A stretch of DNA of 63,646 bases, counting the filler, from Reclinomonas americana ATCC 50394 (lineage: Eukaryota): assembly GCA_048213135.1 (NCBI GenBank). It is 9 parts of 6 records of this genome, joined end to end, with 100 filler letters (N's around TTAATTAATTAA, not from the genome) between each part and the next. Parts side by side here need not be neighbours in the genome. Positions count along the whole stretch, not along the records: positions 1 to 29,355 come from PS015077.1; positions 29,456 to 47,399 come from PS015077.1; positions 47,500 to 51,692 come from PS015077.1; positions 51,793 to 54,570 come from PS015078.1; positions 54,671 to 56,418 come from PS015079.1; positions 56,519 to 58,089 come from PS015079.1; positions 58,190 to 60,390 come from PS015080.1; 2 more parts are not named here. The stretch is one strand, 5' to 3'. Positions 2,117 through 60,229 of this stretch are shown here, one piece after another. The stretch's first letter is position 1. Every line of letters begins with the position of its first letter. The position numbers were made by a program, and so were the translations under genes. The notes beneath the pieces were generated by a model. That model was not told the origin of the DNA. It worked only from the letters and a program-made list of their open reading frames with translations, and did no database searches.

Positions 2117-4829
2117 ATGCTCACGAGCGCGTGGACAGAGGGCGCTCACCAGCCACCACGTGGTGGCAGTTCGCATGGTGTGTGTGTCTCCCTCCTCGCT
2201 GTCTCCCACACGCACGCACACTACATGCTCACTCGGTTGAGCAGATGACGCGGCAAGCATCGACAGCGAGCATGGCTCTGTGTTTTCATACTCGATCTCG
2301 TGTGACCCGGGCACTCCACAGTTCCTGGCGGCCTCGCGCAAGCTGCAGGAGCTCTTTCTGCGCTTCTTGACGCTGCCGTCCACACATCGACAGATTGATA
2401 CGTTTCTCGACTCGTGCGCGGTGATGGTGCAGAGTTGCGTCACTCTTCTGTGTGCTTGCTGCTTTCGCGTGTGCACTGTGCGCTCACGTGTGGTGGTGAG
2501 CACAGACCGAGCGGCGGCTGGTGCGGCCTCGGCTGGTGGACCTCATCTGAGCGCCGATTGGCATGCACCGCCTGGTTCGACGGCGCCACCGCGATCACCG
2601 GCGCACCACGGCGAGATGGGAGGGAGTGTTGGTGGTGGAGTGGCAGGCGATCGACCGTCGTCGGTGTCGCCGACTGTGGGGCCTTCGAAGACGGCGGGAG
2701 TGGGTGCGCCGGGCGCCACAGCACCGACGCCGGCACCGTCACTGGGCGGTGCGTCTTCTTCTGCACCGACAGCCACGAGCACCGCAGCGGCAGCAGCAAA
2801 GGGGCCGGCGGCAGACACTGTGGGAAGGGTGCGTGCGTGTGTGTGAAAATAGTTGCCTGCATGGTTGCTAACTACAGTAACACGGCAGGGGCCTGCGGGT
2901 GGGAGCAGCAGCAGTGGAGCTGCGGCACCGGCGCCAGCACCTTCTGCACCGCGCGAGGTATGCGATTGATGGACGGCGGGGAGAGAGAGTCTCTGGCTTT
3001 CTGTGTCTCATACGCCAGCACACAGATCATTCCCTCGTTCTACAAGCCCAAGCCTCCACCGGTGCGGACACAAGATGGCGATGTGCCGGTAAGTGGGAGG
3101 CCTCGCCACACACTCTCCCGGTTCTCGAAATGCTGATGGCAGGTGGTGTGCGTGTGTGTGTATCCGTGTAGGCTCGCCTTCGGAGTGCATTTGGTCTCAG
3201 CAGCAACGCACTTCAAGAAGTGGGCCTGCTGCGCGTGACACGAGACGTGCTGAAGCTGCCGTCGTATGTAAATCGAACACTTTTCCGGCGAGTGGACACG
3301 ACAGGCACCGGCACCGTGACCCTCGAGTCGTTTTTGCGGTACTGGCAGCGTGAACTCTCCGGCAACGAGGAAGCGCGTCAGGTGTACAATATTTTCCGTG
3401 CTCCCACTGGCAAGACTATTGTTCGCAGTGGATTTGTCGACTTGGTACAAGGTCTTGTCTTCGCGACACAATGCTACCTGCCTGATGTTGTGGTCTCACC
3501 CCATGTTTCGTCTCTGCAGAGGTTCTCGAGCGACATCCGGGCCTCGAGTTCCTCAAGCAGACGCCCGAATTCCAAGAACGATACGGTGAGTCGAGTCGAG
3601 TGGCGGGGAATGGCGGAGCACGTGACGCTCACCTGTCACGTGCACACAGCCGAGACGGTGGTCGAACGGATATTCTACGTTCTCGATCGCACCAACCTGG
3701 AGGCAATAGACTTCAAGAGCTTCAAGAACTCAAAACTGCTGGCCACCCTGCAAAAGCTGGACACCGAAGACGACATTAATCAGGTGTGCTTGCGCCGCAA
3801 TACAGTTCGTGCAACTTGTGGGGGGGTTAGGCTGACGGTGGAACTGTGTGTGTGCCAGATCATGGATTTCTTCTCGTACGAGCACTTTTATGTGCTCTAC
3901 TGCAAGTTCTGGGAGCTCGATCACGACCACGATTTCATGATCAACAAGGAAGTTGCGACGATGATGATGATGACAGCGCAGGTGTCGACCATACTGGCTC
4001 ACTGTGTATCTGTGAATGTGTGCAGGAGTTCTCCGCATACAGCAACTACGCACTAACGTCGCGTGTGGTGGATCGCATCTTTGATCAGGCGCCGAGACGA
4101 TTCCTGTGCGAGCGCCGTGGCATGATGTCATATCGCGATTTTATCTGTTGCGTTCCCCTGTCGCAAAGGTCGAGCCGCTCCTCTCGTCTCTCTCATGCCG
4201 CGATGAGCAGGGTTCTGCGTTGCCGAGGAAGACAAGACGTCGCCGACGGCGCTCGAGTACTGGTTCCGTATCATGGACATTGACAATGATGGTCTTCTCT
4301 CCGCGTACGAGCTCGAGTACCTGTACTCGGAGCAGCTGACACGCATGGAGAATCTGGCGGCCGAGATTGTCACCTTTGACGACATTTTGTGTCAAATGTT
4401 GCGTGTTTGCGTGTGTGTCTGTCGCGAAACCTTCGCTCCACGCGATGCTCACCGCCGCTCAGGTTGGACATGGTGAAGCCTGTGGACATTACCGCCATTT
4501 ACATTTCCGACCTCAAGCGATGCAAGCAAGCCGACGTGTTTATCAATACCTTCACCAACCTCAACAAGTTCCTGTCCTTCGAGACCCGCGATCCGTTCCT
4601 GGTGTACCAGGAGAACCAGAGCAACACTCTGAGGTTTATATCTTTTCTCTCTCTCCCTCTCTCGATTTCTCGATCGGATTGTGTCCTCATCACCGTCGTG
4701 CGCAGTGACTGGGAGAAGTTTGCACGTGTCGAGTACGACCGTATGGCCATGGAGGACGAATCGGTGGAGGATGGCGATTATCAGCAGTGGAATGCGGAGG
4801 GACTCGTAGACCGCGAGCTGAGCTTTTGA
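2117..4829 (+). CDS. Protein phosphatase 2A regulatory subunit B'' (PPP2R3 family, EF-hand), multi-exon
   Basis: Spliced motifs AETVVERIFY, FFSYEHFYVLYCKFWELDHDHD, DFIWFCVAEEDK, LEYWFRIMDIDNDG, LCQMLDMVKP, SDWEKFARVEYDRM; stop TGA at 4827-4829; start codon inferred. Confidence 0.93.
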
Positions 4830-5013
4830 GGATAAGACAGAAAACATGTGTATGGTTTGAGGGTGGAAAATGCCGACACGACACGACACGCCGCTGCTCT
4901 GGTTCTGGCGGTGGAGTCGCTGTTGCGTCGAAGTAAAAAAGAAAAACACGCTGAAGACACAGAGAGGAGGATGCACTGGCGACAGGCGCAGTTTTCATTG
5001 AGGACGACCGAGT

Positions 5014-8000
5014 TCACCAGTGCGGCGGAAATCTGAAACGCGCCTGTGCACAACAACGACAATGCAAGCTGTTAGAATGTGGCACGCGAAGCGAGAGTCA
5101 GCGGTGGACGACGCAACAAAAACTGGAAGATGGTCGCTTGGGAAACGCGAGTTGGGAAGGCCACTGCGCAGAAGCAGTCAGGCGAAGACGGAGTCACACT
5201 GACAAAGAAAGACGTGCAAGCACACACCCGTTTTCCTTTGATAGAGTCTGCACAGAGGGCACGTCGAGCACAGCCAGCGGCATGAGTGGCTCGGTGTAGA
5301 ACAACTGCATGCCAGAGGGGTNNNNNNNNNNNNNNNNNNNNNNNNNNNNNNNNNNNNNNNNNNNNNNNNNNNNNNNNNNNNNNNNNNNNNNNNNNNNNNN
5401 NNNNNNNNGGCTCGGTGCCGATCACTGTCTCCATGGCACTGCGGAGCGGCCGAGGATTCACAAATCCACCAGTGGTCGAGTCGAGAACGGACGCCGCGCA
5501 CCCGTCGGCGGCGGCTGTCACCAGCGGGTGATCCGGAGGCACAAATCCTTGAAAGAGAAACGGTTGAACACTCATCAATCATGCAAGTTGTGCGGGAAGA
5601 GACGGCCCCACGCACCGTGACGCAAGTAGCCGTACATGGCGCAGTTTGGTGTCACGTTAAAGTCGCCACCGAGCACCACCGGAATCGGGTGCCCGATTTG
5701 CGCACTGATCTCGCCCTGCAGTCTGTGTATCTCGCGACTCAACACAATCATCTGCCGCATCTGCATGTACGACTGCTTCCAGTTGGCCGAAATGTGCGTC
5801 GAGCCGGCCAGCACGAGGTCACCACGTTCACGATGGCGCAGCACGGCAAACACAGCGACCTGCGTGTGTCCCTTGCCGATGGTGCGCTTCACAGTCGGAT
5901 CGGTGGCCAGTTCGTAGACCGCATCGGCCTGCGCGCAACATGTAAGCGACACACGTCTCACTCTCGTGCATCGACTGACGGCGGAGACGCACCATGCTGA
6001 AGAAGTGTGTGGAGACCAACTCAAACACCGAGTCCTTCCTGCGACAGAATACAACGATCAGTCATCCAGCCATCATCACCACCATCGCCACCACTGTACC
6101 GACGAACCACAGCAGCATGTTGCCGATCACTGGCTCATGCTCCTGGATGACTAGTCCGCTGCGACCGCGCTTCCTGCAATAGCGACCGCGGTAGCCGGCT
6201 GCACTCAGCGTCCTAAACATCCAGTGCGCATGATTGATCGACGGATGCTCTCCCTGGACACACACGAGTTGAGGGAGGCGAAACGGAGTGCATACAGCAC
6301 GATATCGAGACGCACTTGCTCCCACTTGCCGGGCGCTTGGATCTCTGCAATGACAGTCAACCACAATGGCCTTTTGTTGTTGACCTCTCTCTTCGTTCTC
6401 ACCTTGCAGGCAGAGAATGTCGGGCTCGTAGAACAGAATTTCGCGACTGTAGAAGCATGAGGAATGGAGAGCAGTCACATGGGCAAGAATGCAGTAACAC
6501 ACCGAACCGCCCATCGACGATTCTCCCAGTCGAGAGCTGCTCACAGAAAACACAATGAGCGACAGACCACTCGCTGCGCAGCAACGCACGCTCGTCGCGC
6601 ACATGATGGATCGGCGTATGGATACCACGTAGGTGAGCACAGCGACTCGGCCAGAATGTTGTACGTCATCATGGTGAACGATGCACCTGCCACACAAGCA
6701 CACACATGTTGACTGTGTGTGAGAGAGACTGGAGAGGTCCGGAGAACACACGGCTGTGCTGCACCTTGACTTGCTTGCAGTGCACTCGAGTGGCCGATCA
6801 GCGCTCGTGCATTCTCCAGTGGGCCAAACAGCACCACGCGACGCAGCTCGGGCAGCAGGTCGACGCGCCGCAACTGCATGCCGTCCGGTGACACCTCGAC
6901 CGCCGACGACTCGAGAAGAGCCTCGCGGATAATGGTCGTGCGTTCTGTCAGAAGACCACCAGACCTCAGTCACTTGAGCGAACACAGGGAGCTGGCTCGT
7001 GGTCACGCACCAGAGTACTCGGCCAGCCACGCCAGCAGCGGAGGATAGCCGAGCAGCTCGTAGATACCAATGGATCCGTCGCCAGACGAGTACAGGAACG
7101 AGGACAGGTACTGACAAGACACAGGGGTTTGAGCACAGGCCGCCCTCCACACACTCGGCTGAGGAGGCGCTCAATGCCGCGCGACGCAACTACATCCAGC
7201 GCCAGATGCCGATCCGAGAGCCAGAATTCAATGCGGCGACGCACCTTGCTCAGGAGCTCGTCACGCGGCAGACCCTCACTGGGCAGCGGTGACATGGGCG
7301 ATATGGCAGCAGACTCACTCGGCGCGGCATCCTGCGCGCCAGTGAGTTCACAGCTCCCCTCCATGCATCTCATTCCCACCGTCGCCCACACACACCAGAT
7401 GCATCGGCTCCGCGGCACCCCACTCGATGCGAACCACCTCGTCGGGCGTCTTCGGCACCGTCTGCAGTTTGAACGGAGTCTTGCGCTGCACCGCGTCTCG
7501 TTCTCTGGTGAGCTTGAGCTTGTGCAACTTGGGCTGACCGCGGATGGCTTCGACCACTTGCTCCGCTGAAATGTGCTCTTCACGAAACGCGTCAAAACCG
7601 CACATGACTTCGATGGGCACCGAGCCGTCCTCCTCCAACAGCGTCCGCAACAGCTGGCCGTCCTGGCTCAGCAGGAATTCGTCGGAGAACCACACCTGCA
7701 GGTGGCGCAGGATGTACGCATCGCCCTTGTAGCCGCGGATCAGCTGCCGGCCGGACTCGTCACTCACGAGCTCCATCGAAGGGCACAGCGAGGCGGCAGT
7801 GGCCTACCATCCGTCTCCTGTCAGTCACCGCGATGCATGGAATGAGGTGGCGACAACGCAACAATACGAGAAAGCCACAGCTCGCGAGGCAAGTGGCGCA
7901 GCGCGTGCACCACTCGGCGCATCTTGGCGAACTCTTCAATCTGTGGTTGGGGAAGAACGTCAGTCGGCGTCAACGACGCGGAGTGTGGCTCCTACTTACC

Positions 8001-9468
8001 GGCGCACTGCCCTGGTGGTGATCACAGACAGCCATCAACGTGGTGTGCTGCGTGCGTCATGCAGCAACAGGTCAGCAGGCAGAAACAACACAGTGACGAG
8101 GAAAGCACAGTCACCTTGAGCAAGGTGGCCGGGTGGAACATGTGAACAATGAGACGCGACAGCTGCTCATGCAACGAGATCGTGTACAGCGAACGTGAGC
8201 TTCCGTCGAGCTGCAGGAAGCCGGCGTCGCGGAGTCGCTGTCGCTCGATGAGCCACATGAGGTAGTGCTCGGCGGCATCGACAGCACCACTGCCGCTGCC
8301 GCTACCGCCGCTGCTGCTGCCGCCACTGGAGGACGAGCCGGCACTGTTGGTGCGCTTGAGCTTGGCCGCCAGTGGATCGCCCGCAGCCGGTGTGGTGGAG
8401 GCGGCCTTGATGCAGGCCTGCTGAATGAGTGGACACTCGGCTGCAAGACGCACGTGAGTGCCACACACAGAGTCACTCTCATTTCCCGCACACACGCACC
8501 AAACACGAGACGAATCGGCACGTAGCCGAGCGGATGCTCCAGTCGCGCGCTCTCGAGCACTGGATAGGTGGCAGGCGGGTGCAGCACACGACTGAGCCAG
8601 CTGGCCACCATCAGCGACGCTGCCTCGTCGTCCTGACGCTGCAGATCCACGTCGTCACGCGGAGGCTCCTCGTCGACCGGCACCATGGCGGTCTCCGGTC
8701 GCGGAAGCAACAAAAAGAGCTCCTCCAGTCGCATCAAAATCTCCTCTGCGCTCGGCCCGCAAGCAAGCACGCAGCGATGAGCATCACACCACAGAAAGAG
8801 AGAGGGGCACAAATTACGAACGAGAAACAGCGCGTCGGCGCACTCGATCCGGCCCATCGCCACATCGCTTGAACTCGACCGTCGGCGACGTGGAGAACAG
8901 GCGCCGCAAGTACCGATACAGTCCACGCACCGCGCGACTCTCCTCGTTCACAAACTATCCTCGCGCCTCATCCATGAGTGGATCCATGTGCATGATCAGA
9001 CTGCTTGCATGCATGCATGACACACACCTCGGAGAGTCCACCGAGTTCAGTAAAGGCCATGATCAGATCGATCCACGGTCCGGGGACGTTGTGCCGTCGC
9101 GTCGCCGACTCGGGGCGCGTGAGATCCGAGTCTTGCACGTAGATCTCAATCATGGAGGCCACCGTTCGCGCCCATTCTTCATCGATCAAAACATCGCCCT
9201 CCTCGCCTTCCTCGCCGTCGTCGCCCTCATCGGCCTCGTCGTCTTCCGACTCGTCGTTTGGGTCGTGCTGCTGCAAACAGAGAGAGACAATGCAATCAGG
9301 AGAATAACAATAAATGTGCATTGCAAAGAAGCTGAGCGCAACTGCGACGGGCAGATGCGTCAGCGGTTCAAGCGGAGGTCGCAGGAAGAGCGGCGGCGGA
9401 CGCAGAGAACTACGACTGGGTGGGTCGGAAGGCGCAGCGGCAGCGGCGGCACTCTGTTCGTCGGCCAT
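5014..9468 (-). CDS. Fusion of about five La-motif-like domains and a C-terminal CCR4/Angel/nocturnin-type EEP phosphoesterase
   Basis: Exons join in frame through GT-AG introns from ATG 9468; one N gap at 5322-5408. EEP motifs TYNILAE, PDILCLQE, STH, VLGGDFN, FPSDHLP. La-like segments such as RRRIEFWLSDRHLALDVYLSSFL...ALLESSAVEVSPDGMQLRR and LRHLQVWFSDEFL...GSVPIEVMCGF. Confidence 0.75.
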
Positions 9469-9866: not shown

Positions 9867-11187
9867 ATGATGAGTGCCGCCGAAACCGCTGCCTCCTCCA
9901 AGTCACCCACACGCTCATCGTCCGACGATTCAGAGGTGCGCTGCGGTCTTCCGCATCTCCACATCTCTCTCTCTCTCTTACACACACCTGCACACAGTGG
10001 ATTCACTTCAACGTGGGTGGCGAGTACTTTTGCACCACGCGATCCACTCTGCTTGTGGACGACAGCTCCGCACTCTTCCGCAATCTGGCCGAGCTCGACA
10101 GCGGCGCCTCGGACAGCTGCTCCATCCCGTTTTCGCGCGATGACAAGGGACGCATTCTGTTTGATCGCGGTGCGTGCGTGTACGCTTGCGTGTACATCGC
10201 CACACGGGCACGCTGATGATCGTCGTGCACAGATCCACGCTACTTTGATGTGATCCTGTCGTTTTTGCGCACGGGCGAGGTGCGACTCGACAAGGGCACC
10301 TCCACTCGTGGCCTCCTCCGTGAGGCGCAGTATTTCGGGGTCGAAACAGTGCGTGCTGGTCTTTTGTTTCTGGCGCTCTTGCTTCTGGGGTTGCTCACCA
10401 CGGCTCGGTGTTTTCGCCAGTTGGAGCAAGCGGTGCAGCGCATGCTCGATGCCGACGAGGCTGCCGAGGCGCGACAGGCCACGCTGCCGAATTCGCAGCG
10501 GGAGCCGGAGGTCACTCGCGAGGATGTGATTCGAGTTGCGCTGCGCCTGTTGTGCGGTCGCTGTGTGGCTGTGTGGCTGACTCTCCTGCAGAGCATCATG
10601 AGCACCACGTCGGGCACGCCGCTGCGCTTCCAGGGCATCTGCTTCAACACGCTAGTGCTCAACGATCTGGATCTGTCGGGCATCAACTTTCACCGCGCCA
10701 AGATGCACTCGACGCAGCTGGTGGCGGCCTCGCTGCGCGGCGCCAACATGTCGCACAGCTTGCTCACCAGGTGAGTGTTCACCCAGTCTTCATTTCTCCT
10801 TCTCGTCTCATTCCGTTTGAACAGTGCCAAGCTCACGGGTGCCGATCTGACGGGAGCGTCGCTGTGCCGTGCCGACGCTTGTGCCGCCGACTTTACGGGC
10901 GCCATTATGAAGAATGCCGACTTGTCGTACTGCACGCTGACCAATGCCATTCTGCGCAACGTGGACCTCTCCAACGCCAATCTCTCCTACGCCATCATCC
11001 GCGACGTGGACTTGCGCGATTCGGATCTGCGGGTGCGTGTGCCCCAACCTGCTCACTCACTCATACGCTGTGTACTCACGACGCTCTTTCGCTGTATCAG
11101 GGTGCCAACCTGAAGGGCGCAATTTTCCAGGGTGTGGATCGGCAGGGTGCCACACTGGCCATGGGTGGTGTGATTGGTCTGCGGTGA
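9867..11187 (+). CDS. BTB/POZ (T1-type) plus pentapeptide-repeat protein, KCTD9/FIP2-like
   Basis: WIHFNVGGEYFCTTRSTL...FDRDPRYFDVILSFLRTG...LLREAQYFG followed by A(D/N)Lxx repeats (LTGADLTGASLCRAD, LRNVDLSNANLSYA). Confidence 0.9.
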
Positions 11188-11864: not shown

Positions 11865-12812
11865 CGGCTGGCCATACACTGGCTGTCCGTACGGCGGCGG
11901 CGCACCATACTGCGCCGGTGGCGGGTAGTACGGCTGCTGCGGGGCGGCAGGCGGTGGCGCCGTCACGTAGCCCGTGTTGGCCTGTGGCGAGGTGGCACCG
12001 GCCATTGGCGCCGCCGTGGGCGACCCCGGTGCCGGCGACATCTTGCTGCGACTCGACATGTGAATCACGCCGGCGAGCGCAGAGAAGAGGAAGCCGGCGC
12101 CAATCAAGCCCGCCAGCACGCCCGCAGTGATGGCCTTGCCGTTGCCGGCGCTACCGGTGCTCGGCGTCGGCGTCGGCGTCGGGCTCGATCCACTCCCTGT
12201 TTCTCACACGTGAGATGCGCGGAAAAATGCACACTCATGGGCGAGAGAGTGAGACGCAACACGACACAAACAGGCATCCGTTGGTGTTGCTGCTCGAGTT
12301 GCAAAAGTACGACGCCGAGCATGTGGTGGCGGTGGTGGTTCCGGAGGGCGTGAAGCTCATGGAGCCCGTCACGCTGCCGCCAGAGTACGTCAGCGAGAGA
12401 GTGGTGTTGTAGCCAGAGGGCGTGGTCACCGGCGACAGCGTGGCCTGGAAGCAGCCAGTGTCAATCGGACCGCGGTACTGCAACGAGGAGCACGAGCAGC
12501 TGCACAGAAGACGGAAGTGAGCAACTGCTCTCACGCTCTCTCCCTCATTCAAGATGCGCACCCTGACACAGACGAGCTCGGCGTGACAGTGACCGTGGTG
12601 GAGGTGGCATAGGAGATGGTAAAGGAGGCGTAGCACGAGCGCAGGCACGACAGCGATGTGTTGGAGGTGGCCGAGCCGGAGCACGACAGACTCGACGAGG
12701 TGGCGAGCAGGCCGTTGTTGCCAAAGCACTGCGCGTGCGTCTCCTCAGAGGCGAGCAAGAGCAGCGTCGCCACGAGGGCGATGAGCAGCAGGGGCACTCG
12801 ATGCACGCTCAT
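11865..12812 (-). CDS. Single-pass membrane protein: signal peptide, Cys/Ser/Thr-rich ectodomain, TM helix, Pro/Tyr-rich tail
   Basis: MSVHRVPLLLIALVATLLLLA signal peptide; TM AITAGVLAGLIGAGFLFSALAGVI; PPPY-rich tail runs into an N gap. Confidence 0.6.
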
Positions 12813-12931: not shown

Positions 12932-13637
12932 ATGAAGGCAGTGGCGATTGGGTTGCCTGTGGGCGTGCTCACACTGATCTGCGTGCTGCTGGCGGCCATT
13001 GCAGCGGGCCTCCCCTTCTGGATCGTCAGCACGGCCTCGGTATGTGTGTGCGTGTTGTGACGTGGCTGCAGAGGTGTGCTGTTGACTCTGACTGGGCATG
13101 ATGATAAGGGCATCGAGTACCGCGGTGGACTGGTGTACGCCGATGTCTGCAGGTTGCGTGGCACTGGGGAGGGAGAGTCGGAACATTGCCGCCACTGACA
13201 CACACGCACACACGCGCAGCTCGTCATCGTGCGTCACCTCGTCGTACACGCTGAGCAGTGGCGCGGGACTGGTCGGCCTCAAGGTTGCGTCTCTCTGTGT
13301 TTGTCACTCGTCATTGAGATGCGCGCTCACTCCTGCGCAGACACTGATTGTGAACGCGATTGGTCTCATGCTGCTGGCCATCTTTGGCGCGCAAGCCATC
13401 TTCCTGTCGGTGGGCAACCACCCGCGCGGAGTGGCCAAGGTGCCGCGCATCATCTTCTCCGTGGTCGGTTTCATTGGAGTCATTTTTGTCATTGCCGGCA
13501 CCGGCTACCTCGTCAACCAGTACGGCACTGGCTCGCCGTTTGGATGGAGTCACGCGCTGTCGTGGACGTTTGGTGTGGCGTTGCCGTTTGTGCTGGTGCT
13601 GGTGTTTGCAATCACCTCGGTGGCGAGGTTGGAGTGA
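12932..13637 (+). CDS. Four-TM claudin/PMP22/amastin-like membrane protein
   Basis: Spliced product has TM1, then W...GL...C..C in the first loop, three further hydrophobic helices and GWS before TM4. Confidence 0.6.
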
Positions 13638-14131: not shown

Positions 14132-14864
14132 ATGACGCGCTCGTTGTTGATTGTCACCCTCGCGCTGCTTCTCGCGGCCGTGTTCGCGCACGCTGTTGTC
14201 GTGGACGAGGAGAATGGTGCCTTCTACACACACAAGAGCACTCTTTGCACGCTGTCACTCACTCGCGCACAAATTCAGTGCTCTCGCTGTCACTGCAGGC
14301 GCCCGAGGAACTGGAGGCGCAGCCGGTGGGCGACGCCATCCAGCAAGCCATTGAGTTTGAGCGTGAGGCGTTCCAGAAGTCAGCCGCTCCCTACGCGTTT
14401 CGTCTAACTCTTCCTCTCTCACACACTCTTCTCTCTCTATTGTGCGCGCTCACACTCTCTGACAGCGGCCGCTGCCTCGGCTTTGTGAAGGACGCCTACG
14501 CATCGGCTGGTGTCCACCGCGACTACCTCGACCAGGGCAGCGCCAAGGAAGGCGCGGCCGTGGCCAAGCAAAAGGCCGGCTGGACGCACTACAGTGGCAC
14601 TGATGTGCCCGCCGGAGCCGTGCTCTTCTGGAGCGGATGCAGCTCCAATGGTCACGCCGCGCTCTCTATCGGAGGTGAGCGAGACAGAATCATGAAGAAC
14701 GTCGCAAACAGAAACGCTGACTGATGGGGTGGTGTGCTTGTGAAGGTTCGAACGCGTCGAGCAATGGCGACGGTGTGCACTGGAATGGCAAGTTTGGCAT
14801 TGCAGTGGAGTGGCTCAATGAGCACTGGTGCGGCAGCGCCCCCGATGGATACATCATCCCGTAA
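14132..14864 (+). CDS. Secreted NlpC/P60 (CHAP-like) cysteine peptidase, putative peptidoglycan hydrolase
   Basis: Signal peptide; spliced motifs NGRCLGFVKDAY (putative catalytic Cys) and VPAGAVLFW...GHAALSIG (His); three GT-AG introns; stop TAA at 14862-14864. Confidence 0.65.
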
Positions 14865-14981: not shown

Positions 14982-16069
14982 ATGTTTCAGCGCCGTGCTG
15001 ATGGCGCGCTTGCGCGTCTCTTGACGTTTACAGTCGTGGCGCTTCTCATTCCAGTGTACCTGGCCGCGGCGATGCAAATGGCCTCGAGTTTCGTGACTGC
15101 ACTCTCGCGCGCGCGCACGCAACTCACCTTCTGACTCGTTTGCAATAGTGGCTGCCACCAGCACGACTGTGGTTCCGCGTGCGTCTGCCTGCCCGTTCAT
15201 GTCGCTGGCGATCGTCAATGGACTGCAGGGTTACACCACGACCAATCCCATGCGCATGGGCCAGTACAATGCGCTCAGCTTCACCAGCACCCCGGCCATC
15301 TCCTTCAACTTGCAGGTGGTGCTCAACATCACGCGGATAGGTGTGGCGCCTGGCCAAGGGTGCGCGCAGGTGTGCACGCAGGGGTACACGGCGGCCTCCA
15401 CTTTCACCTCCGACCCAGTCTCGCAAGCAGTTGCGTTCTTCTTTGGTCTTCGCGCTCTTGCGGGGACCTCTGGCTCACCGCACCCGCTGTGGCAATCAGG
15501 TCTACTGGACGCTTTGCGGTCAGTTGAACACTGCTTGCGGCGCGGTGTTGAACGGCAACGTCATACAGGAGACGCTACAAGTTCGCGTCCAATATCCCTC
15601 GTGTGCTCTCGACGCCACCGTTAACGTGGTCGTGCAGTACGGATGTTGTGTCTCGCACCTCGCACGAGCTGTACTGTGTCATCCCTCTCTTACACACGCT
15701 GTGTTTCAGACTCGACTCGCTTGCGTGCCTCTGCCAATTCCGTGCAGGCGCTGTTTCATGCTGTTGTGGGCATGCCGTTCCGCACCATGACGATTGAGGT
15801 GACGGACGGCTGGGGCAATCTAGTGCTGAGCGACAATGGGCGCGCCGTCACCATTGCACCCAGCAACCCCAGCTTCGCGTTCATCGGTCAGAGCACGGTC
15901 AACACCGTGAACGGGCAGGCCGTGTTGTCGCAACTCATCTTCGTCGGCTACATTGGTCAGCAATCGTCGTCGCAGCCGCTGCAGGCCAGTTTGCTGGTCT
16001 CCTCGAATCCCGTTCTCGTCCCGATCACGCTGGTGGCCACCGTGGCGCCCTCCATTGGCAGTGCGTGAG

Positions 16070-19100: not shown

Positions 19101-20106
19101 AACCATCCTCGTCTCCGTGCTGTCGACAGCCTTGCTACTCGGCAGCATTCTCGCCTTTGTAGTCGTGGCATTCCTGTATCTCAGCGCCGGCACCAACGCG
19201 TTCTCCACTGTGATCACCACTGGTGCGTGAGAGACAGTTTGGCGAAAGTACGTACTTGCTTCTCGTCACTTATACGTACACGCGGCGTTCTCTTCTAAAT
19301 GCAGGTCTGGTGTTGTTGTCATCTCGCTTATTCGGTGTTGGTGGCGGTGGTGGAGGCGGAGGCATCAGTCTGCCTTCGGGTGGCGGCGGTGGCGGAGGCG
19401 GGGGTAGTAGTGGTAGCGGCGGCGGCGGCGGCGGTGGCGGTGGCACGCTTTCCACTCTTGGTAGTGTACTCGGTCGTGGTAACGGCAGCGGAGGTGGCGG
19501 CGGCGGTGGTGGTGGTGGCGACGACAAGTCGTCCTCCGATCCGCCCGCCAGCTCGCTGGCTGCGCAGTGGCAAAAAATGCGACAGTTGCGTCGACTCTTG
19601 TGCGCATGCAACCTGGCAGTCCTTGCAACTGACGTGCGCGCGCGTACGTGTACAGACTTCGCGAATCCAGGGGAGGCGTTTCTGCACCTCTGCCATCGGC
19701 GGGTCCGGGCGCACAGCAGTCACCCCCGTCGTCACCGTCGAATGGCACGCCGCCGGCCACGCCCCCCGACACCATGTCACTGTTGCGCGGTCAGTCGGTG
19801 CGATCGGCCGCTGGCCTGCCGCAGCCACCGGCGCAACCGGTGCCGCCCACCCCCGCCACATCGCCACTGGGCAGCAATGCGTCGGCAACTGGACAGAACG
19901 TCAGCAACCCACTGTTTGGCCGGCCAGCGTCCAACTCGACGGCCTCGCTGGACGCACGCAGTGACGCCCCGCGGTCGTACCTGTCGGCGGCGCCACCACC
20001 ACCGCAGCCACCACGGTTACCAGCACCGTCGGACCTGGCAAGCGCTGCGTCGGCCGCCAGTGCTGCAGGGCGACAACCGCACGCTTTTGCGCCCAGTCGA
20101 GTGTGA
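14982..20106 (+). CDS. Large multi-exon membrane protein of unknown family: beta-rich ectodomain, several TM helices, Gly-rich and Pro-rich tail
   Basis: Succession of + strand exons separated by GT-AG introns; N-terminal hydrophobic segment; Ig-like-looking segment (IEVTDGWGN...TVNGQAVLSQL); hydrophobic helices at 17990-19330. The exon chain was not fully frame-checked. Confidence 0.55.
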
Positions 20107-23371: not shown

Positions 23372-23506
23372 NNNNNNNNNNNNNNNNNNNNNNNNNNNNN
23401 NNNNNNNNNNNNNNNNNNNNNNNNNNNNTCCCAACTTTTTTGAGTGCGACAAACAAAAAGTCAGCAAAGAGGCAAAAGACTGTGCATGACAACAAGCAAG
23501 CGCAAC

Positions 23507-36420: not shown

Positions 36421-36654
36421 TAGCTGCAAATGCACGAATGCGCGTGTGCGTGTGTGAGTGTGCGCGTGAAGTCAGACATGCTCACTGACACGCACGCTAT
36501 GCACACGCAGGCACATAGACAGGCGGACAGAGAGACGGAAGGAGAGCATGCATGTCTAAGAGAGACGCAACGATGGCCTCGCGTGTCGGTGAGTGACGAC
36601 GAGTGACAGATTAATGTGTCCCGCGCACGCGTCTCTGTCTCTCTCTCTCCGTCG

Positions 36655-47399: not shown

Positions 47400-47499
47400 N
47401 NNNNNNNNNNNNNNNNNNNNNNNNNNNNNNNNNNNNNNNNNNNTTAATTAATTAANNNNNNNNNNNNNNNNNNNNNNNNNNNNNNNNNNNNNNNNNNNN

Positions 47500-49172: not shown

Positions 49173-51099
49173 CTACGGGGGTCCGGCTGCTACTTCTCCC
49201 TCCACTTCGTCCTCCTCCTCCTCCTCCTCATCGTCGTCGTCACCGTCGTCATCGCCATCATCACCGTCGTCCGCGGCGGCAACTTCATCCTCGTCGCCAC
49301 TCGACTCGACATCCTCCACCTCGCCCTCCTCGACCTCACCGCGCTCCTCAGGTGTGTCGCCCCGCCACGCACCCTTGCGCGCCGGCACAACCTCCTTCAG
49401 GGCCGCCGGCAAATCCCCGCCGGACTCGAAACAGCGCAACACAATGGTGGCGGCCTGATCCACAGACAGCACCGGGTTTGAGCGAATCGAGAAGAACTTG
49501 CGCAGCGGCAGTGTCACGGCGCGCGCGCCGCCCTGCATTGCCCTGTAATACGTTTGATTCTGCGCGCCAGCCGGTAATGAGTACACGTCGGGAGACTCTC
49601 TCTGGCAGCGGCAGAAGCACCTTGGACACCAGCAGGTCGACAATTCCACCGACCACGTAGACAGCATCCGGTTCCAGGCGACCGTCAAACTCCTCGCGGG
49701 CGTCAGGGCTCAAAAACACCAGCCTCTCCGGTGGAAACAAGTCGAAGACGTCCTCCTCGTGCATGCGGATCTGGGAGGGTGTTGATGGGAAAGAGAGGGG
49801 TGAGCGAGAAGGGAGGGAAGGAATGAAAGAGACAGAAGGAGAGCATCAAGGAGAAGCGGGGAAAGGAGGAAAGGACAGGATCAAGCAGAAGCAACGGTAA
49901 GACAGAGGCAGAGAAGGAAGGGATAAGGTCGAGGAGAAACGAAGAGCAATCGGAAGCACAAGCAGAAAGAGTGCACTCTGGGAAAGCAGGAAAGGAGGAA
50001 AGGACGGGGTCAAAGAAAACCACAGGGCGAGCGATTGAGGCAGAAGCATATTGTGCGCTTCCCGGAAAGGAGGAAAGGACAGGATCAAGGAGAACCACAG
50101 GGCGAAGCAGACAGAGTGCTTCTAGGAACGGAAGCAATCAACTGGGAGGCAGAGGCAGAACGAATGCTGCCAGGAATTGGGGGAAAGAGCTGGATCAAGG
50201 GGAACGAAAGCGATTAACTGGGAGGCAAAGGGTGTTTCCGAGGAGAGGAGGTAAGGAAAGGATCACCAACTGGGAAGTAAACAACGCCCCAGGCCGCAGA
50301 ACAAGAGCGGAAGGCGGGCAAGAAAGCAGTAAGCCAACGCAACTCCCGTCCACCGCCGATGCGAAAAGTGCGGAAACCACTCCTGCAACTGCGGCGACAG
50401 GCCACACAAGTGCGTGCCAAGTGGCGTCTCACTGCGCTTGAGCTCGCCCGAGAACATGTTGATCTGCTGCACCAACGAGCGCATCTCCTTGTCGTTCATG
50501 AGACGCTGACAGTAGGAAAAGTCAAAGACCACTTGCGGACCGGTCTCCAGCGATCGCCGCATGCGCTCTCGCGACTCTGCACAGTAAACTGCTGCGGCGT
50601 GCCGTTTACTCGCGCGCTCGGCATCATACACAGCACGTTCCTCTGTGTCAAAGAGAGTATGAGAGCTTGTGAGAGACACTTGATTGTAACACAGAGAGGG
50701 AGAGCGCGCTGACCGGGTGTCATTGCTGCCACTCGTGCATTCTCCTTGGCGACTGCCTCCAAATGCTGCGCTCGTTGCTGATCACGACGACGTGCAAGTC
50801 GCAACTATGTGTGTGCACGAGAGAGTGTGTAAGAAGAAATGTTAGAGACTGTGTGCTGCGCAGCGTCTCTCTTTCTTCTCAACTTTTCGTCGTCGTTCAT
50901 AATCGGCTTTTCTGCCTACGCGCTTGGCGATGACTTCGTCGGAGACCACCGAGGCCTCGCGCACGGGTTGACCGCGAGGAAAGGCAGTCGAGTGCCGCAT
51001 AAAGACATCATCGTCGTCGCTGCCTCCGCCCACAATCGGGAAGAACTCGTCCGCCTCGTCACCCGCTGCTGCTCCTGCTGCTGCTGAGGAGGGCTCCAT
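49173..51099 (-). CDS. TRM10: tRNA (guanine/adenine-9-N1)-methyltransferase, Trm10 family
   Basis: VVFDFSY...MNDKEMRSLVQQI; LVFLSPDA...VYVVGGIVD; TLPL...VLSVDQ...ALKEVVPARK; acidic tail. Confidence 0.9.
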
Positions 51100-51160: not shown

Positions 51161-51692
51161 TCAGTCGCGGAAGGGCGATGGAATGGCAATGTGCTGGTCG
51201 TGTGCGAAGCGTGCTAGCAAGAGCAGATCGCGTGCGGCCGTGTTGGACTCGAGGAAGTGAGCCAGCGTGCTGCCAATGTCGGGGCAGCGGTACGACGTCG
51301 ACCTCTGCGACATGGCGACGACCGTGGATCTGCGAGGGCCAACACGTGAGCTGCGGGGGTGGGTGAGCAGTGCTCCACAGAAATACGCAACGTGTCCACC
51401 GCGTGCGGCTCGAGACCGGCCACGACGGCGGCAAAGCTGCCATCCAGTTCCGCCTGTTGCTCCCGTTGTTGTTGTTGTTGCGGGCCGGCAACATCGGACT
51501 TGAGGCAGAAGACGGCCAGCGTGTCGTCGGGGAACCGCAGACACCACAAACGAGAGGCAGTCGGTCTGCCAGACACACGAGGTGAGAGGCCAGCCTTGCA
51601 GACAGATAGAGAGAGATAACCCACCCACTCATGTCCACAGAGAACGAGGACATGTGCTCACTGTCGTCGCCTTGTGCGACCATGAGTCGTCC
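51161..51692 (-). CDS. 3' fragment of a hypothetical protein
   Basis: Exon/intron pattern including a GTTGCG donor at 51391; no recognisable motif. Confidence 0.3.
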
Positions 51693-51792
51693 NNNNNNNN
51701 NNNNNNNNNNNNNNNNNNNNNNNNNNNNNNNNNNNNTTAATTAATTAANNNNNNNNNNNNNNNNNNNNNNNNNNNNNNNNNNNNNNNNNNNN

Positions 51793-54515
51793 GCCGCCGT
51801 CACCCGAAGACGAGGCGCGCGGCGGCCTCTCGGTTGTCGAGTCCACTGTCTATATCCTTTGCTTGCTTGTGCCAGACCGTGATGATGCCTCTTGCTTTGC
51901 ATCGTGAGCCCTTGACTCTTGCTGTCTCACGGCAGGCGATTCCATCCTTCCTCAATGCCGTGGATGCCGCTCTCGCCGACATTGGGTTGCGTACTCACCG
52001 GCACTGGCACATTGTTTCCTGAAAATCTGACGACTTGATGCAGCATGCCGCCGCTGCCGTTCGATCGTCAGCTGCTCACCATCTCTACGTGGATGGGCGG
52101 TGACCGCGACGGAAACCCCTTTGTTACTTGTACGTGGGCGTCTCTCTTGCTCCGTTGCCAATTCTGCCTTCTCCTCACAATTGCGTTTTTGTTCAGCTCG
52201 CGTGACGGCCGACATTTGCTGGATCTCTCGGTTTGTGTACTCCCTTGTTCATTTGCTGACGACATTATCGTTTGAGTGATCTTTTCTGTGCTTGCAGTCT
52301 GCGTGCCATCGATGCCTACTTTGCGGTTCGTCACGTGCGACAACTTCGAATTGCTCACGCATTTGTTCATCTCAGCTGTTTGTAGGTGGTCGACGAGCTC
52401 GTGTTCGAGCTGTCCATGACCGAGGCCACGGACGAGTTGCGCCAGTACGTCGCGCAGCTGCGTGGTGGTCAGCCGCCCACTCCCACTGCGGGTCTGGCTG
52501 AGGTGTGTCCTTTTCCCAGCAGGGCATTCGTGTCGTGTGTTCTTCTTATCTTAGGCACACGCGCAGGCGAAAATCGCCACGATCGCTGGCTCCTTCCTGC
52601 ACGCCTCGGCGCATCCGCACCACCGTGGAGATCCTTCCGGCCCCTCCTCGTCCTCCAGCCGCGGCATTCGCCACGGTTTGCAGATGAACGCCTCGGCTCT
52701 GCAGGCCTCTGCCGAACAGACCAAGCGCCTGCTCGACTTCTCAACCTACATTCCCCCGTCTGAGCCGTACCGTCAAGTGCTTGGCTGGGTGCGCGAGAAG
52801 TTGTCGACGACACGCGCCTACATTGAGCAGACGTGGCTCACCGAGTCGCTGGAGCCGACGATCTTTTCGGTGCCCATCGACACGTCCAACATTTTCTGGG
52901 AGGCCCAGGACTTGCTCGAGCCTCTTGCCGTGTGCCACCGATCGCTGTGTGCCACGGGCGACGCCATCATTGCCAACGGCAAGCTGTTGGATCTGATGCG
53001 CCGCATCCGCTGCTTTGGTGAGTGAGCACTCGTACGAGTGTTTCTGTCTCCTCGTTCAGCTCACCGTTGGAACATAATAACAGGCATGGCACTGATGCAC
53101 TTGGACTTGCGCCAAGAGTCGTCACGCCACACACGTGCAATGGATGCCGTGACCAAGTACATTGGTCTCGGTTCATATGCCACCTGGAGTGAGGAGGAGC
53201 GACAGGCATTCCTACTGAAGGAGTTGGTGGGCCGACGCCCGCTCATCCCGTGGGACATGCCGCTGGCGCAGGAGGATCGCGAGGTGCTCGACACATTCCG
53301 CGTGGCTGCGCGCATGGGCCGCGATGCACTCGGTGCCTACGTCATCTCGATGGCGTGCTACCCGTCTGATGTGCTGTTGGTCGAGCTGTTTGCTCGCGAG
53401 GCTGGCGTACCCGAGGGAACCATGCGAGTTGCGTTACTCCCGGGCACTATGCGCGCGTATTATCTGTGCTGACGTGCTGGCACACAGGTGGTGCCACTGT
53501 TTGAAACCGTGGAGGCGCTGGTTAACGCCCGTCGCACGCTGCATTCGCTGCTGTCGGTCGAGTGGTACATTAATCACACCGGTCGCAAGCAGGTACGACA
53601 CGCATATCTGTGTGTACCCATCCTTTTTTCACCATCGCTCGCCCTCATTCTGCTCGCCACAGGAAGTGATGATTGGCTACTCCGACAGTGGCAAGGAGGC
53701 CGGTCGTCTCGCCTCGTCGTGGTACCTGTACACGGCGCAAGAGGAACTCGTCGCGCTCTGCAAGGAGATGAATGTCGAGCTCACGCTGTTCCACGGTCGT
53801 GGCGGTACAGTCGGTCGTGGTGGAGGTGCGTTGTGTTGACCTTGTCTGCGTGGTCCCTGCGCACGCAAATGATGGTGGTGTGGTGTGGTGGCAGGTCCGC
53901 AGCACGTGGCCATTCAGTCGCAGCCTCCGGGCTCCATTCTCGGCCGTCTGCGCGTCACTGTGCAGGGTGAAATTATTCAGCACAGGTGGGGTGGTCGGCG
54001 CACATTGTCTCGCAGTCTTGTGTGACTCATGCTCTGTGTTTCGCAGCTTTGCCAACACGTCCATTGCCTTCCGGTGTGTATTTCATAATCTGATTACTGT
54101 GGGCAGTCTCCTCACTCACTCGGTGAACGCAGCACACTCGAGTCGTACACCACGGCCACATTGCTTGCGACGCTGAAGCCTGCTGCCGGTCCCACCGACG
54201 AGTTCCGGTGCGTCAAGCTTCTTGCCTGATTAAATTCGTGATGTGCTCTCACCAGTAGTGTGCTTGCAGCGAGGTGATGCGCGACTTGACCCGCCTCTCG
54301 TACGATCAGTACCGCAAGGTGGTGTACGGACACCCGCAGTTTGCCGACTACTTGCTGGCAGCCACTCCGTTGCTCGAGCTCGGCGCTCTCAACATTGGTT
54401 TCGTTTGCTCTCCACTCGCATGTTGTGCTCTCCACTCACTGTGCGCACACGGTTGTGTGTGCAGGTTCCCGTCCGGCTCGCCGACAGCTGACGGGCGGTG
54501 TGCAGTCGCTGCGTG
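51793..54515 (+). CDS. ppc: Phosphoenolpyruvate carboxylase (internal fragment, truncated at both ends)
   Basis: [95 protein letters not shown]. Confidence 0.97.
51852..51930 (+). other. U12-type (minor spliceosome) AT-AC intron in PEPC
   Basis: 5' ATATCCTTT; branch CCCTTGAC at 51909-51916; 3' end CAC. Removal restores ESTV-W-QAIPSFL with the conserved Trp. Confidence 0.92.
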
Positions 54516-56418: not shown

Positions 56419-56525
56419 NNNNNNNNNNNNNNNNNNNNNNNNNNNNNNNNNNNNNNNNNNNNTTAATTAATTAANNNNNNNNNNNNNNNNNNNNNNNNNN
56501 NNNNNNNNNNNNNNNNNNTGACTCG

Positions 56526-56597
56526 GAGGCGATGGCGTAACGGTAGCGCGTGAGATTCCAGTCCTCAAGGTTGGGGGTTCAAATCCCTCTCGTCTCC
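56526..56597 (+). tRNA. tRNA-Trp (CCA)
   Basis: Cloverleaf: acceptor GAGGCGA/TCGTCTC, D-arm GCGT/GCGC, anticodon CCA at 56558-56560, T-arm GGGGG-TTCAAAT-CCCTC, T-run terminator just downstream. Confidence 0.92.
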
Positions 56598-56629
56598 TAT
56601 TTTTTGGATTTATTTTGTGATTGAGTGAA

Positions 56630-57849: not shown

Positions 57850-58211
57850 CGTGGGGCAGGGCGGGCAGTGGTGAAATTTCGGAGGGAGAATGAAAATTGA
57901 AGCGAGTGGTCTTCGCTCACGAGGACAGATGAAAAGATGAAAAAATTTAGGGACAAAATTGGTTGAACTGTGAGCGAGCCACCACTGTACCACCTGTGAG
58001 CTCGATGCGGGCAACGGGGCGGGCATGGTGTGGGGGTCGCCGGCACGACGCCCTGTCGACCTCCATCCACCATCACAAAAAAAAAAAAANNNNNNNNNNN
58101 NNNNNNNNNNNNNNNNNNNNNNNNNNNNNNNNNTTAATTAATTAANNNNNNNNNNNNNNNNNNNNNNNNNNNNNNNNNNNNNNNNNNNNACAAATCAAGC
58201 GCACAACGCAC

Positions 58212-60229
58212 CAGGAAGCGACAGCGCTGACGCCCGGCCGGCACTGGACCCACGTCCATGCACGCCACCTCCTGTCCCACGTCGACCTTTTCGATTTCGG
58301 TCAGCTGCTGCGAGTGCGGATCCAGCTCAAAGTACACCAGCTCGCCACCACCGAGGGCCACCGCCACCTGGCGCTCGTTGGCCGCCGCACGCACAATGGT
58401 CTTGCGCCCCGGTGGCTTCCACTCGCGCAGGCCGCGATCGGCGCCAATGTATCGCACGCCATTGGGGAACACCTGAGCGGCGATTGAGAGAAGCAAAGAT
58501 TGGAAAATGAGAGGGTGTCTCGATGCGCACCTGCAACAGGGCATCGTTCTTCAGCAGCGACACCAGGATCGTCGGCGCGGTGCCGAGGAACCCGCTATCT
58601 TGCACCTCCTCCACCGTCTCACCGACAGCCAACACCATGGTGGCGTTCAAGTACGACACCACAATGTACTGGTCGAACTCGTCTGCAGCACGCAGCCAAG
58701 GTGGGTGAAGAGCAGGAGAAGTGAAGAGAAGAGAAGAAAAAAAGTGGGAAAAGTGGCAAGAGGAAGAAAGGAAGCGCGTGCTGCGCCGAGGCAGATGGAA
58801 AAGAACAGAGAGAACGATTCGCAAGGAGAAGTGAAGAGAAGAAAAGAAAAGAAAAATGCGGCAAGAGGAAGAAAGGAAGCGCGTGCTGCACCGAGGCAGA
58901 TGGAAAAGAAAGACAGAGAGAACGATTCAGAAGGAAGAGAAGACAAGAAAAAAAGGAAAAAAAAAAGACAAACGGAAGTAAGAAACAAAGCGAGTGCTGC
59001 GCCGAGGCAGAAGAAAAGAAAGACAGAGGCCGACCCTTTTCTTTCCCTGTAAAAGAAAAAAGTGGCAAAAGCATACAAGCACTGGGGCTTCCCAAGTGGT
59101 CCCCCACCCTAGTACTGACCCAGCTGAACGCGGCTTAACTTCACAGATCGGACGGGATGTGGTGTTTTCCGCGTCATGTGGCCGTATGCGACTACTAAGG
59201 CGAAAGAGTGCACGGGGGGATTGCAGGAAGAGGGGAGCGGAAAGGAAGAGAGAGATGAAAGAGAGACGAGGCCACGAAGGAACAGATCGGTATTTTCCAA
59301 GATATACGACTATCACGAGGACAGCGAAAAGAAGAGGACACGAACGGGGGAGAATGAGAGAAGAACAGAGATGCTGTCCACGCAACATATCGTCAGGGGA
59401 AACGAGAAAGTAGGATCAACTGAGAGAAAAAGTGCGAAAGAAAACAGAGCCGATGCATTCTGTGTGTCGCGCAATGGGGCGAGGGTGAGAAGAACAACGG
59501 AAAGAGATACACAAAGGAGACCAAGTAGAGATGAAGAGACAACGCGAGAGCAACATAGGGAAACAAGATAAGACGATTTGTCGCGTCACTTGGAGAAGGA
59601 ATGACATATCCACGCCACTGCGAAAGGTGCGACGCTCTTCAGCGTGTGACACGAGAGGTTGAGCAGGAGAGGTCAAGAACGAAAGAGATATCCAAGCAAG
59701 GAGTGAAGCTATTCAGCGTGCAACAGGGGAGGCTGAGCAGACGAGGACAAGAACGAAAGAGATACGAGCAATGCGATGAATAATGCTCAACTGAGCGACC
59801 TTGCCCTCTCCTCACCCTCTCCTTGCCCCTCTCGACTCACCATCATGCGAACGCTTCACACTCCACACCGCCGATGGCACCGAGTGCAGTGGCGAGGCGG
59901 CCATCTCGTGCACCTGCAGACCGTGGCGCAGAATGCGCAGCGAGCTGCAGTTACCGCGGCCAGTGAGGCAGTAGAACTGTGAGGTGCCTTCGCCGATCAA
60001 GTCTTGTGCCTGTAGGGGCCCGCGTCAGCAACCGGAAAGGAGGAGTGCAGTTGCGGGGAAAGACGCAACGACAAAGTCGTTGACAGGGGCCAGAGAGTTA
60101 ATGTCGTCGATGAGGAGCAGATTCTTCAGGTGGCGCACTTTGTAGGTGGGGAACTCGCCGAGGCCCTCCAAGAACACTGTTCCCGAGTACAGCTCGTCGT
60201 CGCCGAGGCCCAGGAATCGGTAGAATTTG
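58212..60229 (-). CDS. SF3B3: Splicing factor 3B subunit 3 (SAP130/Rse1), internal fragment
   Basis: [68 protein letters not shown]. Confidence 0.95.
59071..59189 (-). rRNA. 5S rRNA gene within SF3B3 intron 58683-59840
   Basis: 119 nt, GCATACGGCCAC...CATCCCGTCCGATCTGTGAAGTTAAGC...AGTACTAGGGTGGGGGACC...GGGAA...GTATGC; terminal helix GCATAC/GTATGC; followed by a TTTT terminator. Confidence 0.95.

Follow-up and report, generated by a model that had tools for sequence, protein, structure and literature searches.

The stretch of DNA analysed here in its entirety (the window) consists of 63,646 bases of eukaryotic nuclear DNA from draft contigs, with a G+C content of about 55% and 5,378 N across 32 runs. 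The contigs are strung together by eight identical artificial linkers (Table 1), and gene order across the linkers is therefore not biological. Open frames with Pfam matches encode a PP2A B'' subunit, PEP carboxylase (PEPC), a PARP-like protein, an aminotransferase and a fatty-acid hydroxylase, among others; the aminotransferase was judged from its named homologues to be serine palmitoyltransferase 2 (SPT2). Many introns in these genes begin with GUUGCGU. This word, together with the wider pattern GUU-NN-G(U) that lacks G at the fifth intron position (G+5; the last exon base is -1), defines a genuine, common class of 5' ends of U2-type GT-AG introns in this organism and is not a chance motif. 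Depending on whether it is drawn strictly or widely, the class accounts for about 19% to 25% (wide; 41/167) of the predicted short introns in the window.

Introns were predicted with a purpose-written, self-trained Viterbi gene finder, whose codon model was seeded from Pfam-matched stretches (third positions 6% A). The first pass was blind to the donor, GT and AG being the sole requirements; models of the donor (first-order), acceptor, branch site and intron length were afterwards trained in repeated rounds. The final model contains 190 introns (179 of at most 120 nucleotides (nt); median 68 nt), and the predicted short introns carry the branch motif CT[CG]A[CT] about 20 nt before the 3' end. 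Twelve of the 179 short introns lie in strand-conflicted gene models and were dropped, leaving 167 donors for statistics.

An initial annotation of the window had listed about 30 GTTGCG donors, and all 30 positions do carry the hexamer on the strand given. As donors, 25 of them are predicted, in GT-AG introns of 57-95 nt, and 23506 is supported by homology; those at 34800, 47586, 5117 and 50343 are not predicted. Seven GTTGCG donors are predicted beyond that list (39705, 44534, 7862, 12260, 31021, 36571 and 51391). GTGCGT, named there as the other common donor, indeed ranks first with 33/167 donors, and GTTGCG is second with 32/167, where an independent-position donor model, run as a preset test, expects 1.5. 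Over the whole window the enrichment of the hexamer itself is modest (82 sites, counting both strands, vs 61 +/- 7.8 in dinucleotide shuffles), while the 7-mer GTTGCGT is enriched threefold (43 sites vs 13.6 +/- 3.6). The following base also separates the sites that are predicted as donors, which include 26/43 of GTTGCGT, 4/21 of GTTGCGC and 0/8 of GTTGCGG, so that T+7 is found in 26/32 GTTGCG donors.

GTTGCG donors occur in 17 of the 34 intron-containing gene models and in all three phases. Their introns equal those with GTGCG donors in length, G+C content and branch distance, have a share of CAG acceptors similar to that of G+5 introns, and place the branch A at a median of 19 nt from the 3' end, as ordinary introns do. 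All members of the wider class (41/41) are GT-AG. A CT[CGA]AC branch site is present in 25/32 GTTGCG introns vs 46/107 G+5 introns (p=5e-4).

The two leading hexamers do not depend on the learned donor model. In the donor-blind first pass, GTGCGT (12) and GTTGCG (6) were already the top hexamers among 112 introns. Switching the donor model off in the final finder leads to over-prediction (486 introns), yet GTGCGT (28) and GTTGCG (24) still rank first, with G-1 in 19/28 of the former vs 3/24 of the latter. The reversed-sequence control yielded 1 and 0 introns, with 0/41 GTTGCG sites called as donors.

Homology fixes seven GTTGCG donors (six in gapless alignments, one by an exact exon end) and 19 other donors. 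In the PEPC gene, 12 of 13 predicted junctions fall within gapless alignments to three homologues, including those of the GTTGCGT donors at 51986 and 53428. In the SPT2 gene, six of seven junctions are alignable and five of those six are gapless, including GTTGCGT 25087. At donor 23506, similarity to the SPT2 protein of Seculamonas (P0124) stops exactly at KRG/GTTGCG (a slash marks the junction); the read-through is unrelated and the acceptor lies in an N run. The conserved part of the PP2A B'' gene contributes seven junctions that align without gaps to two or more of three homologues, including GTTGCG 3952, 4147 and 4398, and the other nine junctions of this gene fall in its unconserved N-terminal part. 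Three protein motifs quoted in the initial annotation as pinning such introns, DFI-W-FCVAEEDK, CQ-M-LDMVKP and MR/VVPLFET, are thus confirmed by gapless alignments; the junction in H-F-VENHDE (34547) is predicted by the gene finder alone.

The last exon base distinguishes these donors from ordinary ones. G-1 had been claimed for only three of the listed sites, and the count is exactly 3/30 (13153, 13284 and 51986). Among all GTTGCG donors G-1 is found in 3/32, vs 80/107 donors with G+5 (Fisher p=2.4e-11). The accompanying claim that G-1 is frequent before GTGNG holds as well, with 30/44 for GTGCG in the 179-intron set (p=1.8e-7 vs GTTGCG). Conversely, A-1 precedes 12/32 GTTGCG vs 5/107 G+5 donors (p=9e-6). 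At -1 of GTTGCG donors, codon position by itself would give 10.5 G and 5.3 A where 3 and 12 are seen (binomial p=0.004 each), indicating that G-1 is avoided and A-1 favoured; the preference for A-1 is clearest at third codon positions (6/14 phase-0 GTTGCG introns). The contrast is present in the homology-fixed subset, where G-1 occurs at 1/7 GTTGCG vs 16/19 other donors (p=0.002). Neither of two outcomes that the initial annotation had named as refuting, a GTTGCG frequency fitting independent positions and a lack of -1 covariation, is observed.

Sorting the 167 donors by positions +3, +5 and +6 reveals a wider rule. Ordinary donors with G+5 (n=107) have G-1 in 80/107. Donors with G+6 and U+3 that lack G+5, that is GUU-NN-G (n=41), have G-1 in 4/41, A-1 in 17/41 and U+7 in 31/41. 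When +3 is not U, donors with G+6 and no G+5 (n=9) have G-1 in 8/9 and A-2 in 7/9. Donors with neither G+5 nor G+6, whatever their +3 (n=10), have G-1 in 7/10. The loss of G-1 extends to the nine members of GUU-NN-G other than GTTGCG (GTTGTG, GTTTCG, GTTCTG and GTTCCG; G-1 1/9), and U+3 together with G+5 leaves G-1 in place (16/22). The -1 composition of GUU-NN-G donors (A17 C9 G4 T11) resembles the ordinary composition at -2 (A37 C27 G15 T28; chi-square p=0.82) and is far from that at the ordinary -1 (p=2e-12). Likewise, the +4/+5 pairs of GUU-NN-G (GC 32, GT 4, TC 3, CT 1, CC 1) all occur among the ordinary +3/+4 pairs but are narrowed towards GC (32/41 vs 43/107).

To account for this pattern we lean, with some reserve, to the reading that the 5' end of an ordinary U1 small nuclear RNA (snRNA) pairs one base out of step with GUU-NN-G donors. 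The standard U1 5' end is ACUUACCU. G+1 would then stand opposite U1 C9, the base normally paired with exon G-1, and A-1 could pair with U1 U10. U+2 against U1 C8 would be the single mismatch, followed by the proposed pairs U+3:A7, G+4:pseudouridine 6, G+6:C4 and U+7:A3, so that U+3, G+4, G+6 and U+7 would fill the places held by U+2, G+3, G+5 and U+6 of GUGCGU. Cleavage would still fall before G+1, carried out in the U6/U5 steps that follow. Human work is the source of both the shifted register and the numbering of U1 used here (PMC4856993 and PMC9311317, each in part). A one-base shift predicts that -1 should look like the ordinary -2 and that U+3 should be needed, and G-1 is seen in 4/41 with U+3 vs 8/9 without it. 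The stronger branch sites and the narrowing to GC fit a weaker donor in need of compensation. The initial annotation had offered shifted or bulged recognition, or a variant U1/U6 snRNA, as a mainstream mode, with G+1 substituting for G-1; these counts support, and extend to GUU-NN-G, a mainstream class in a +1-shifted register with G+1 in place of G-1, and the same data disfavour the bulged variant.

Several observations weigh against a shifted register of the ordinary U1. In ViennaRNA calculations with the unmodified standard U1 11-mer, which carries neither pseudouridines nor proteins, GTTGCG donors have a mean of -1.75 kcal/mol vs -5.46 kcal/mol for GTGCGT, and the G+1:C9 pair forms in only 2/32 GTTGCG donors, C4:G+6 forming in 14/32. 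A pure shift also predicts that G+7, found in 56/107 ordinary donors, should be matched by G+8, which is seen in only 9/32 GTTGCG donors. Furthermore, most of the introns are gene-finder predictions in one 63.6-kilobase window. The pairing partner, the register and a standard U1 5' end in this organism are accordingly proposals drawn from the base statistics of predicted and homology-fixed introns.

Other explanations were considered against the same evidence. The normal register could be kept at the exon end and GU, with U+2 or U+3 bulged out and GCGU paired like +3 to +6 of GUGCGU. The motif is indeed GUGCGU plus one U, a +2/+3 bulge is a validated rare register in humans with 54-68 predicted sites (Table 3 of PMC4856993, in part), and bulge-like features are seen in nine further donors of the window, which have G+6 and follow a strong AG exon end. 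However, a bulge would leave C9 free for exon G-1, so that G-1 and A-2 should stay ordinary; the scarcity of G-1, which falls even below its codon-position expectation, and the likeness of -1 to the ordinary -2 make this improbable. We regard as about equally improbable that U6, U5 loop 1 or Prp8 select the class more than U1 does, the non-G, A-rich -1 reflecting a U5 or protein preference and the U6 helix starting one base later. Cleavage is fixed by U6 and not by U1, and the registers of U6 at the 5' splice site may differ from those of U1 (PMC4856993, in part); the association of G-1 with G+5 has been argued not to be due to U1 alone (PMC8283771, in part). Such late selection gives no reason, though, why -1 should copy the ordinary -2 or why U+3 should be required.

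A dedicated or co-evolved snRNA, be it a sole U1 whose 5' end has changed or an additional U1 variant matching GUUGCGU, is unlikely but carries more weight than these. The very strict 7-nt consensus and the weak duplex predicted with standard U1 speak for it, as do positions +8/+9, which do not follow the ordinary +7/+8 pattern; the stronger branch sites are what a separate class might show, and co-evolved U1 has precedents in Entamoeba and Mastigamoeba (bioRxiv 10.1101/2022.06.08.495308, in part). On the other hand, the class is not one word, since GUUGUG, GUUUCG, GUUCUG and GUUCCG behave alike at -1, and its exon profile reproduces the ordinary one at an offset of exactly one base, for which the ordinary U1 suffices and no additional RNA is needed; a standard U1 is retained in other lineages whose donors read GYGCGY (section 16 of the same preprint, in part). 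We give slightly less credence still to the specific form in which a second U1-like snRNA matching GUUGCGU reads these introns and three systems (U1, U1-variant and U11) work side by side. If true, how the variant arose would be preserved in the single base by which the two classes are offset. Finally, the class could be an artefact of the gene finder or of chance motif enrichment, with the true junctions elsewhere: an iteratively learned donor model could reinforce itself, some short introns had to be set aside for strand conflict, and four of the claimed sites are not predicted. This is very improbable in view of the donor-blind runs, which again rank these two hexamers first and reproduce the -1 contrast, the nearly empty reversed control, the homology-fixed junctions and the enrichment of the 7-mer over shuffles.

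Two further identities were rejected. The class is not U12-type, its donor being GTTGCGT and not RTATCCTT and its branch site CTCAC or CTGAC and not TCCTTRAC at 10-15 nt from the 3' end. Nor is it an introner-like mobile family: an all-vs-all blastn of the 179 intron interiors gave 87 non-self matches, and the 20 that were listed are short low-complexity matches or overlaps of opposite-strand models.

Table 1. Coordinates of GTTGCG introns, wider GUU-NN-G introns, claimed donors that are not predicted, and linkers in the window
Feature	Coordinates	Strand	Exon -1 base	Length (nt)	Basis
GTTGCGT	2434..2505	+	A	72	predicted; unconserved N-terminal region
GTTGCGA, PP2A B''	3952..4025	+	A	74	predicted; gapless INKE/EFSAY vs 3 homologues
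GTTGCGT, PP2A B''	4147..4210	+	T	64	predicted; gapless DFI/WFCVAEEDK vs 3 homologues
GTTGCGT, PP2A B''	4398..4462	+	T	65	predicted; gapless LCQ/MLDMVKP vs 3 homologues
GTTGCGT	7111..7190	-	A	80	predicted
GTTGCGT, beyond earlier list	7804..7862	-	T	59	predicted
GTTGCGC	9271..9342	-	A	72	predicted
GTTGCGC, BTB/pentapeptide gene	10535..10591	+	A	57	predicted
GTTGCGT, beyond earlier list	12197..12260	-	T	64	predicted; weak opposite-strand model overlaps
GTTGCGT	13153..13219	+	G	67	predicted; competing minus-strand model in region
GTTGCGT	13284..13340	+	G	57	predicted; competing minus-strand model in region
GTTGCGT	15430..15499	+	A	70	predicted
GTTGCGC	17244..17314	+	T	71	predicted
GTTGCGT	18136..18207	+	A	72	predicted
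GTTGCGT	19585..19655	+	A	71	predicted in final model
GTTGCGT, after 6-nt micro-exon, fatty-acid hydroxylase gene	20569..20644	-	C	76	predicted
GTTGCGT, after 6-nt micro-exon	20651..20745	-	C	95	predicted
GTTGCGT	21451..21519	-	T	69	predicted
GTTGCGC, donor at 23506, enters N run, acceptor unseen	23429..23506	-	A		homology to P0124 ends at KRG/
GTTGCGT, SPT2	25006..25087	-	T	82	predicted; gapless vs Seculamonas protein and 2 others
GTTGCGT, PARP-like gene, beyond earlier list	30948..31021	-	T	74	predicted
GTTGCGT, GH13-like gene	33003..33077	+	C	75	predicted
GTTGCGT	33525..33586	+	T	62	predicted
GTTGCGT (H-F-VENHDE)	34547..34617	+	T	71	predicted
GTTGCGT	35098..35156	+	A	59	donor-blind pass and final prediction
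GTTGCGT, beyond earlier list	36497..36571	-	C	75	predicted
GTTGCGA, beyond earlier list	39705..39783	+	A	79	predicted
GTTGCGT	42117..42183	+	A	67	donor-blind pass and final prediction
GTTGCGC, beyond earlier list	44534..44602	+	C	69	predicted
GTTGCGT, beyond earlier list	51330..51391	-	C	62	predicted
GTTGCGT, PEPC	51986..52043	+	G	58	predicted; gapless ADI/GMPPLP vs 3 homologues
GTTGCGT, PEPC	53428..53487	+	A	60	predicted; gapless MR/VVPLFET vs 3 homologues
GTTGCGT	60010..60069	-	C	60	predicted
GTTTCGT, wider GUU-NN-G class	14397..14465	+	C		predicted
GTTTCGT, wider GUU-NN-G class	15088..15148	+	A		predicted
GTTGTGT, wider GUU-NN-G class	15645..15709	+	T		predicted
GTTCTGT, wider GUU-NN-G class	17927..17989	+	A		predicted
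GTTCCGA, wider GUU-NN-G class	19011..19079	+	A		predicted
GTTTCGC, wider GUU-NN-G class, SPT2	24752..24828	-	A		predicted; variable stretch, one-residue gap vs P0124
GTTGTGG, wider GUU-NN-G class	28243..28349	-	A	107	predicted, negative intron score
GTTGTGT, wider GUU-NN-G class	33762..33827	+	C		predicted
GTTGTGC, wider GUU-NN-G class	43935..43995	+	G		predicted
GTTGCGT, claimed donor, 70-nt segment	34800..34869	+		70	model reads through; removal would shift frame
GTTGCGT, claimed donor, upstream of predicted ATG, beside contig linker	47586..47660	+			not predicted
GTTGCGT, claimed donor, beyond N run at gene 3' end	5045..5117	-			not predicted; CTGAC/CTAAC and CAG at usual distance
GTTGCGT, claimed donor	50270..50343	-			not predicted; no clear CTSAC branch site
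Artificial six-frame-stop linkers, N44-TTAATTAATTAA-N44, eight identical copies	29356-29455, 47400-47499, 51693-51792, 54571-54670				
Same N44-TTAATTAATTAA-N44 linker type, continued	56419-56518, 58090-58189, 60391-60490, 62349-62448				

The window holds other unusual introns. The PEPC gene has a U12-type AT-AC intron of 79 nt (51852-51930, +) with the donor ATATCCTT, a branch-like CCTTGAC 12-14 nt before the end, and a terminal AC. Its removal restores ESTVW/QAIPSFL, as in the homologues P0054 and P0072; the gene finder, being restricted to GT-AG, passed over it. The organism thus appears to have a minor spliceosome. The predicted intron 32466-32533 (-) starts with GTATCCCCCT after AAG and resembles a GT-AG U12-type donor, with a branch-like CTCTTCAC about 22 nt from the 3' end and a low intron score. 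The nine donors with G+6 and neither G+5 nor U+3 (3452, 17393, 34010, 34642, 34908 and 39843 on the plus strand; 55325, 20559 and 6764 on the minus strand), for example GTGCTGT, GTGCAGT and GTCTTGT, follow an AG exon end and may be a second noncanonical group that uses single-nucleotide bulges. Many ordinary G+5 donors run into GT or GTGC repeats, such as GTGTGTGTGT, GTGCGTGTGT and GTGCGTGCGT. Micro-exons of 9, 6 and 6 nt, encoding YGQ, YN and YV, are predicted at 20560-20568, 20645-20650 and 20746-20751 (-) in the fatty-acid hydroxylase/sterol desaturase-like gene, and both of the 6-nt micro-exons are followed by a GTTGCGT donor.

The organism is probably a jakobid. Of all the proteins, SPT2 has the closest named relative: a 150-residue exon is 78% identical to the protein of the jakobid Seculamonas ecuadoriensis, the next named eukaryote being at 68%. 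The homologues of PEPC carried no lineage signal. The organism is not Andalucia godoyi, an intron-poor species in which most genes are without introns (PMC7050145, in part) and the introns present are described as 'all GT...AG'. A metagenome search with the SPT2 exon returned 80 loci, of which 16 were examined and none was close (77-83% identity, best segment only); three metagenomic SPT2 loci that were inspected have chiefly GTACG or GTATG donors, and no locus above 2.5 kilobases is rich in GTTGCGT. A word-index search with the 61-residue PP2A B'' exon had a sole return, P0121, a predicted protein of 178 residues on a 745-nt ENA contig. Its residues 1-41 correspond to query residues 21-61 and are 98% identical to that part of the exon (4273-4395, +); this near-identity places the same organism, or a sister of it, in another public assembly.

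The SPT2 gene body (23435-25163, -) stops at donor 23506, before an N run, and its C-terminal exon (26949-27104, -) sits upstream of the gene's own start, beside other N runs; the arrangement probably reflects a contig placed wrongly or a partial second copy. A 5S ribosomal RNA gene (59070-59189, -; 103 bits) and a transfer RNA gene (56526-56597, +) are found among protein genes on small contigs, the former about 150 nt from a fragment of a beta-propeller gene of the RSE1/DDB1/CPSF1 type. An Rfam search of the window found only these two RNA genes, and no snRNA gene in the window.

A full-text literature search for GTTGCG, GTTGCGT, GUUGCG and GUUGCGU as donors, to which supplementary donor tables were outside, returned only primers and unrelated RNAs. 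A search on jakobid introns found no donor consensus, supplementary tables and the donor lists they may hold again lying outside it. No printed description of the GUUGCGU donor came within reach of these searches, and a mechanism known elsewhere as rare apparently serves here as a main class. Shifted U1 pairing has so far been a curiosity, seen at a few dozen splice sites in humans. If it serves a fifth to a quarter of introns in this free-living protist, in the same genes as ordinary donors, the register of 5' splice site recognition can evolve into a stable second code, and the organism would offer a natural system, with thousands of sites, for how cleavage stays exact when U1 marks one base off. 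It would also explain why standard gene finders and donor models, built on G+5 and G-1, would mis-annotate such genomes. The class also bears on the reconstruction of ancestral splice signals, as the organism probably belongs to the jakobids, a deep-branching and little-studied lineage.

The closest known counterpart is the human shifted-register 5' splice site (Roca and Krainer 2009, via PMC4856993, in part), which is likewise a U2-type GU site with G+6 and U+7 and without G+5, where the U1 pairs are all moved by one position, G+1 takes the place of G-1 and cleavage stays at GU, as would be the case in the register proposed here. The human register is backed by suppressor U1, whereas ours is drawn from base statistics. 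The human sites are rare, all validated noncanonical registers combined amounting to about 1.5% of 5' splice sites (PMC4856993, in part); in contrast, the class described here supplies 19-25% of the predicted donors, follows a strict GUUGCGU consensus of its own and is selected at the exon base for A or U and against G. The bulge +2/+3 and asymmetric-loop registers (Roca et al. 2012; Tan et al. 2016, via PMC4856993, in part) share with it one extra nucleotide between GU and the G that pairs with C4, but the exon-end preferences of GUU-NN-G are shifted, as would not be expected of a bulge. Entamoeba (GUUUGU donor, U1 AACAAAC; bioRxiv 10.1101/2022.06.08.495308, in part) is a further protist with an unusual and strongly conserved donor word. 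There, nearly all introns of an intron-poor genome share one atypical donor, whereas here two registers appear to be used side by side within single genes of a genome dense in introns. Like U12-type introns, GTTGCG introns form a second, sharply defined donor class beside ordinary introns; unlike them, they have the ordinary CTSAC branch site about 19 nt from the 3' end.

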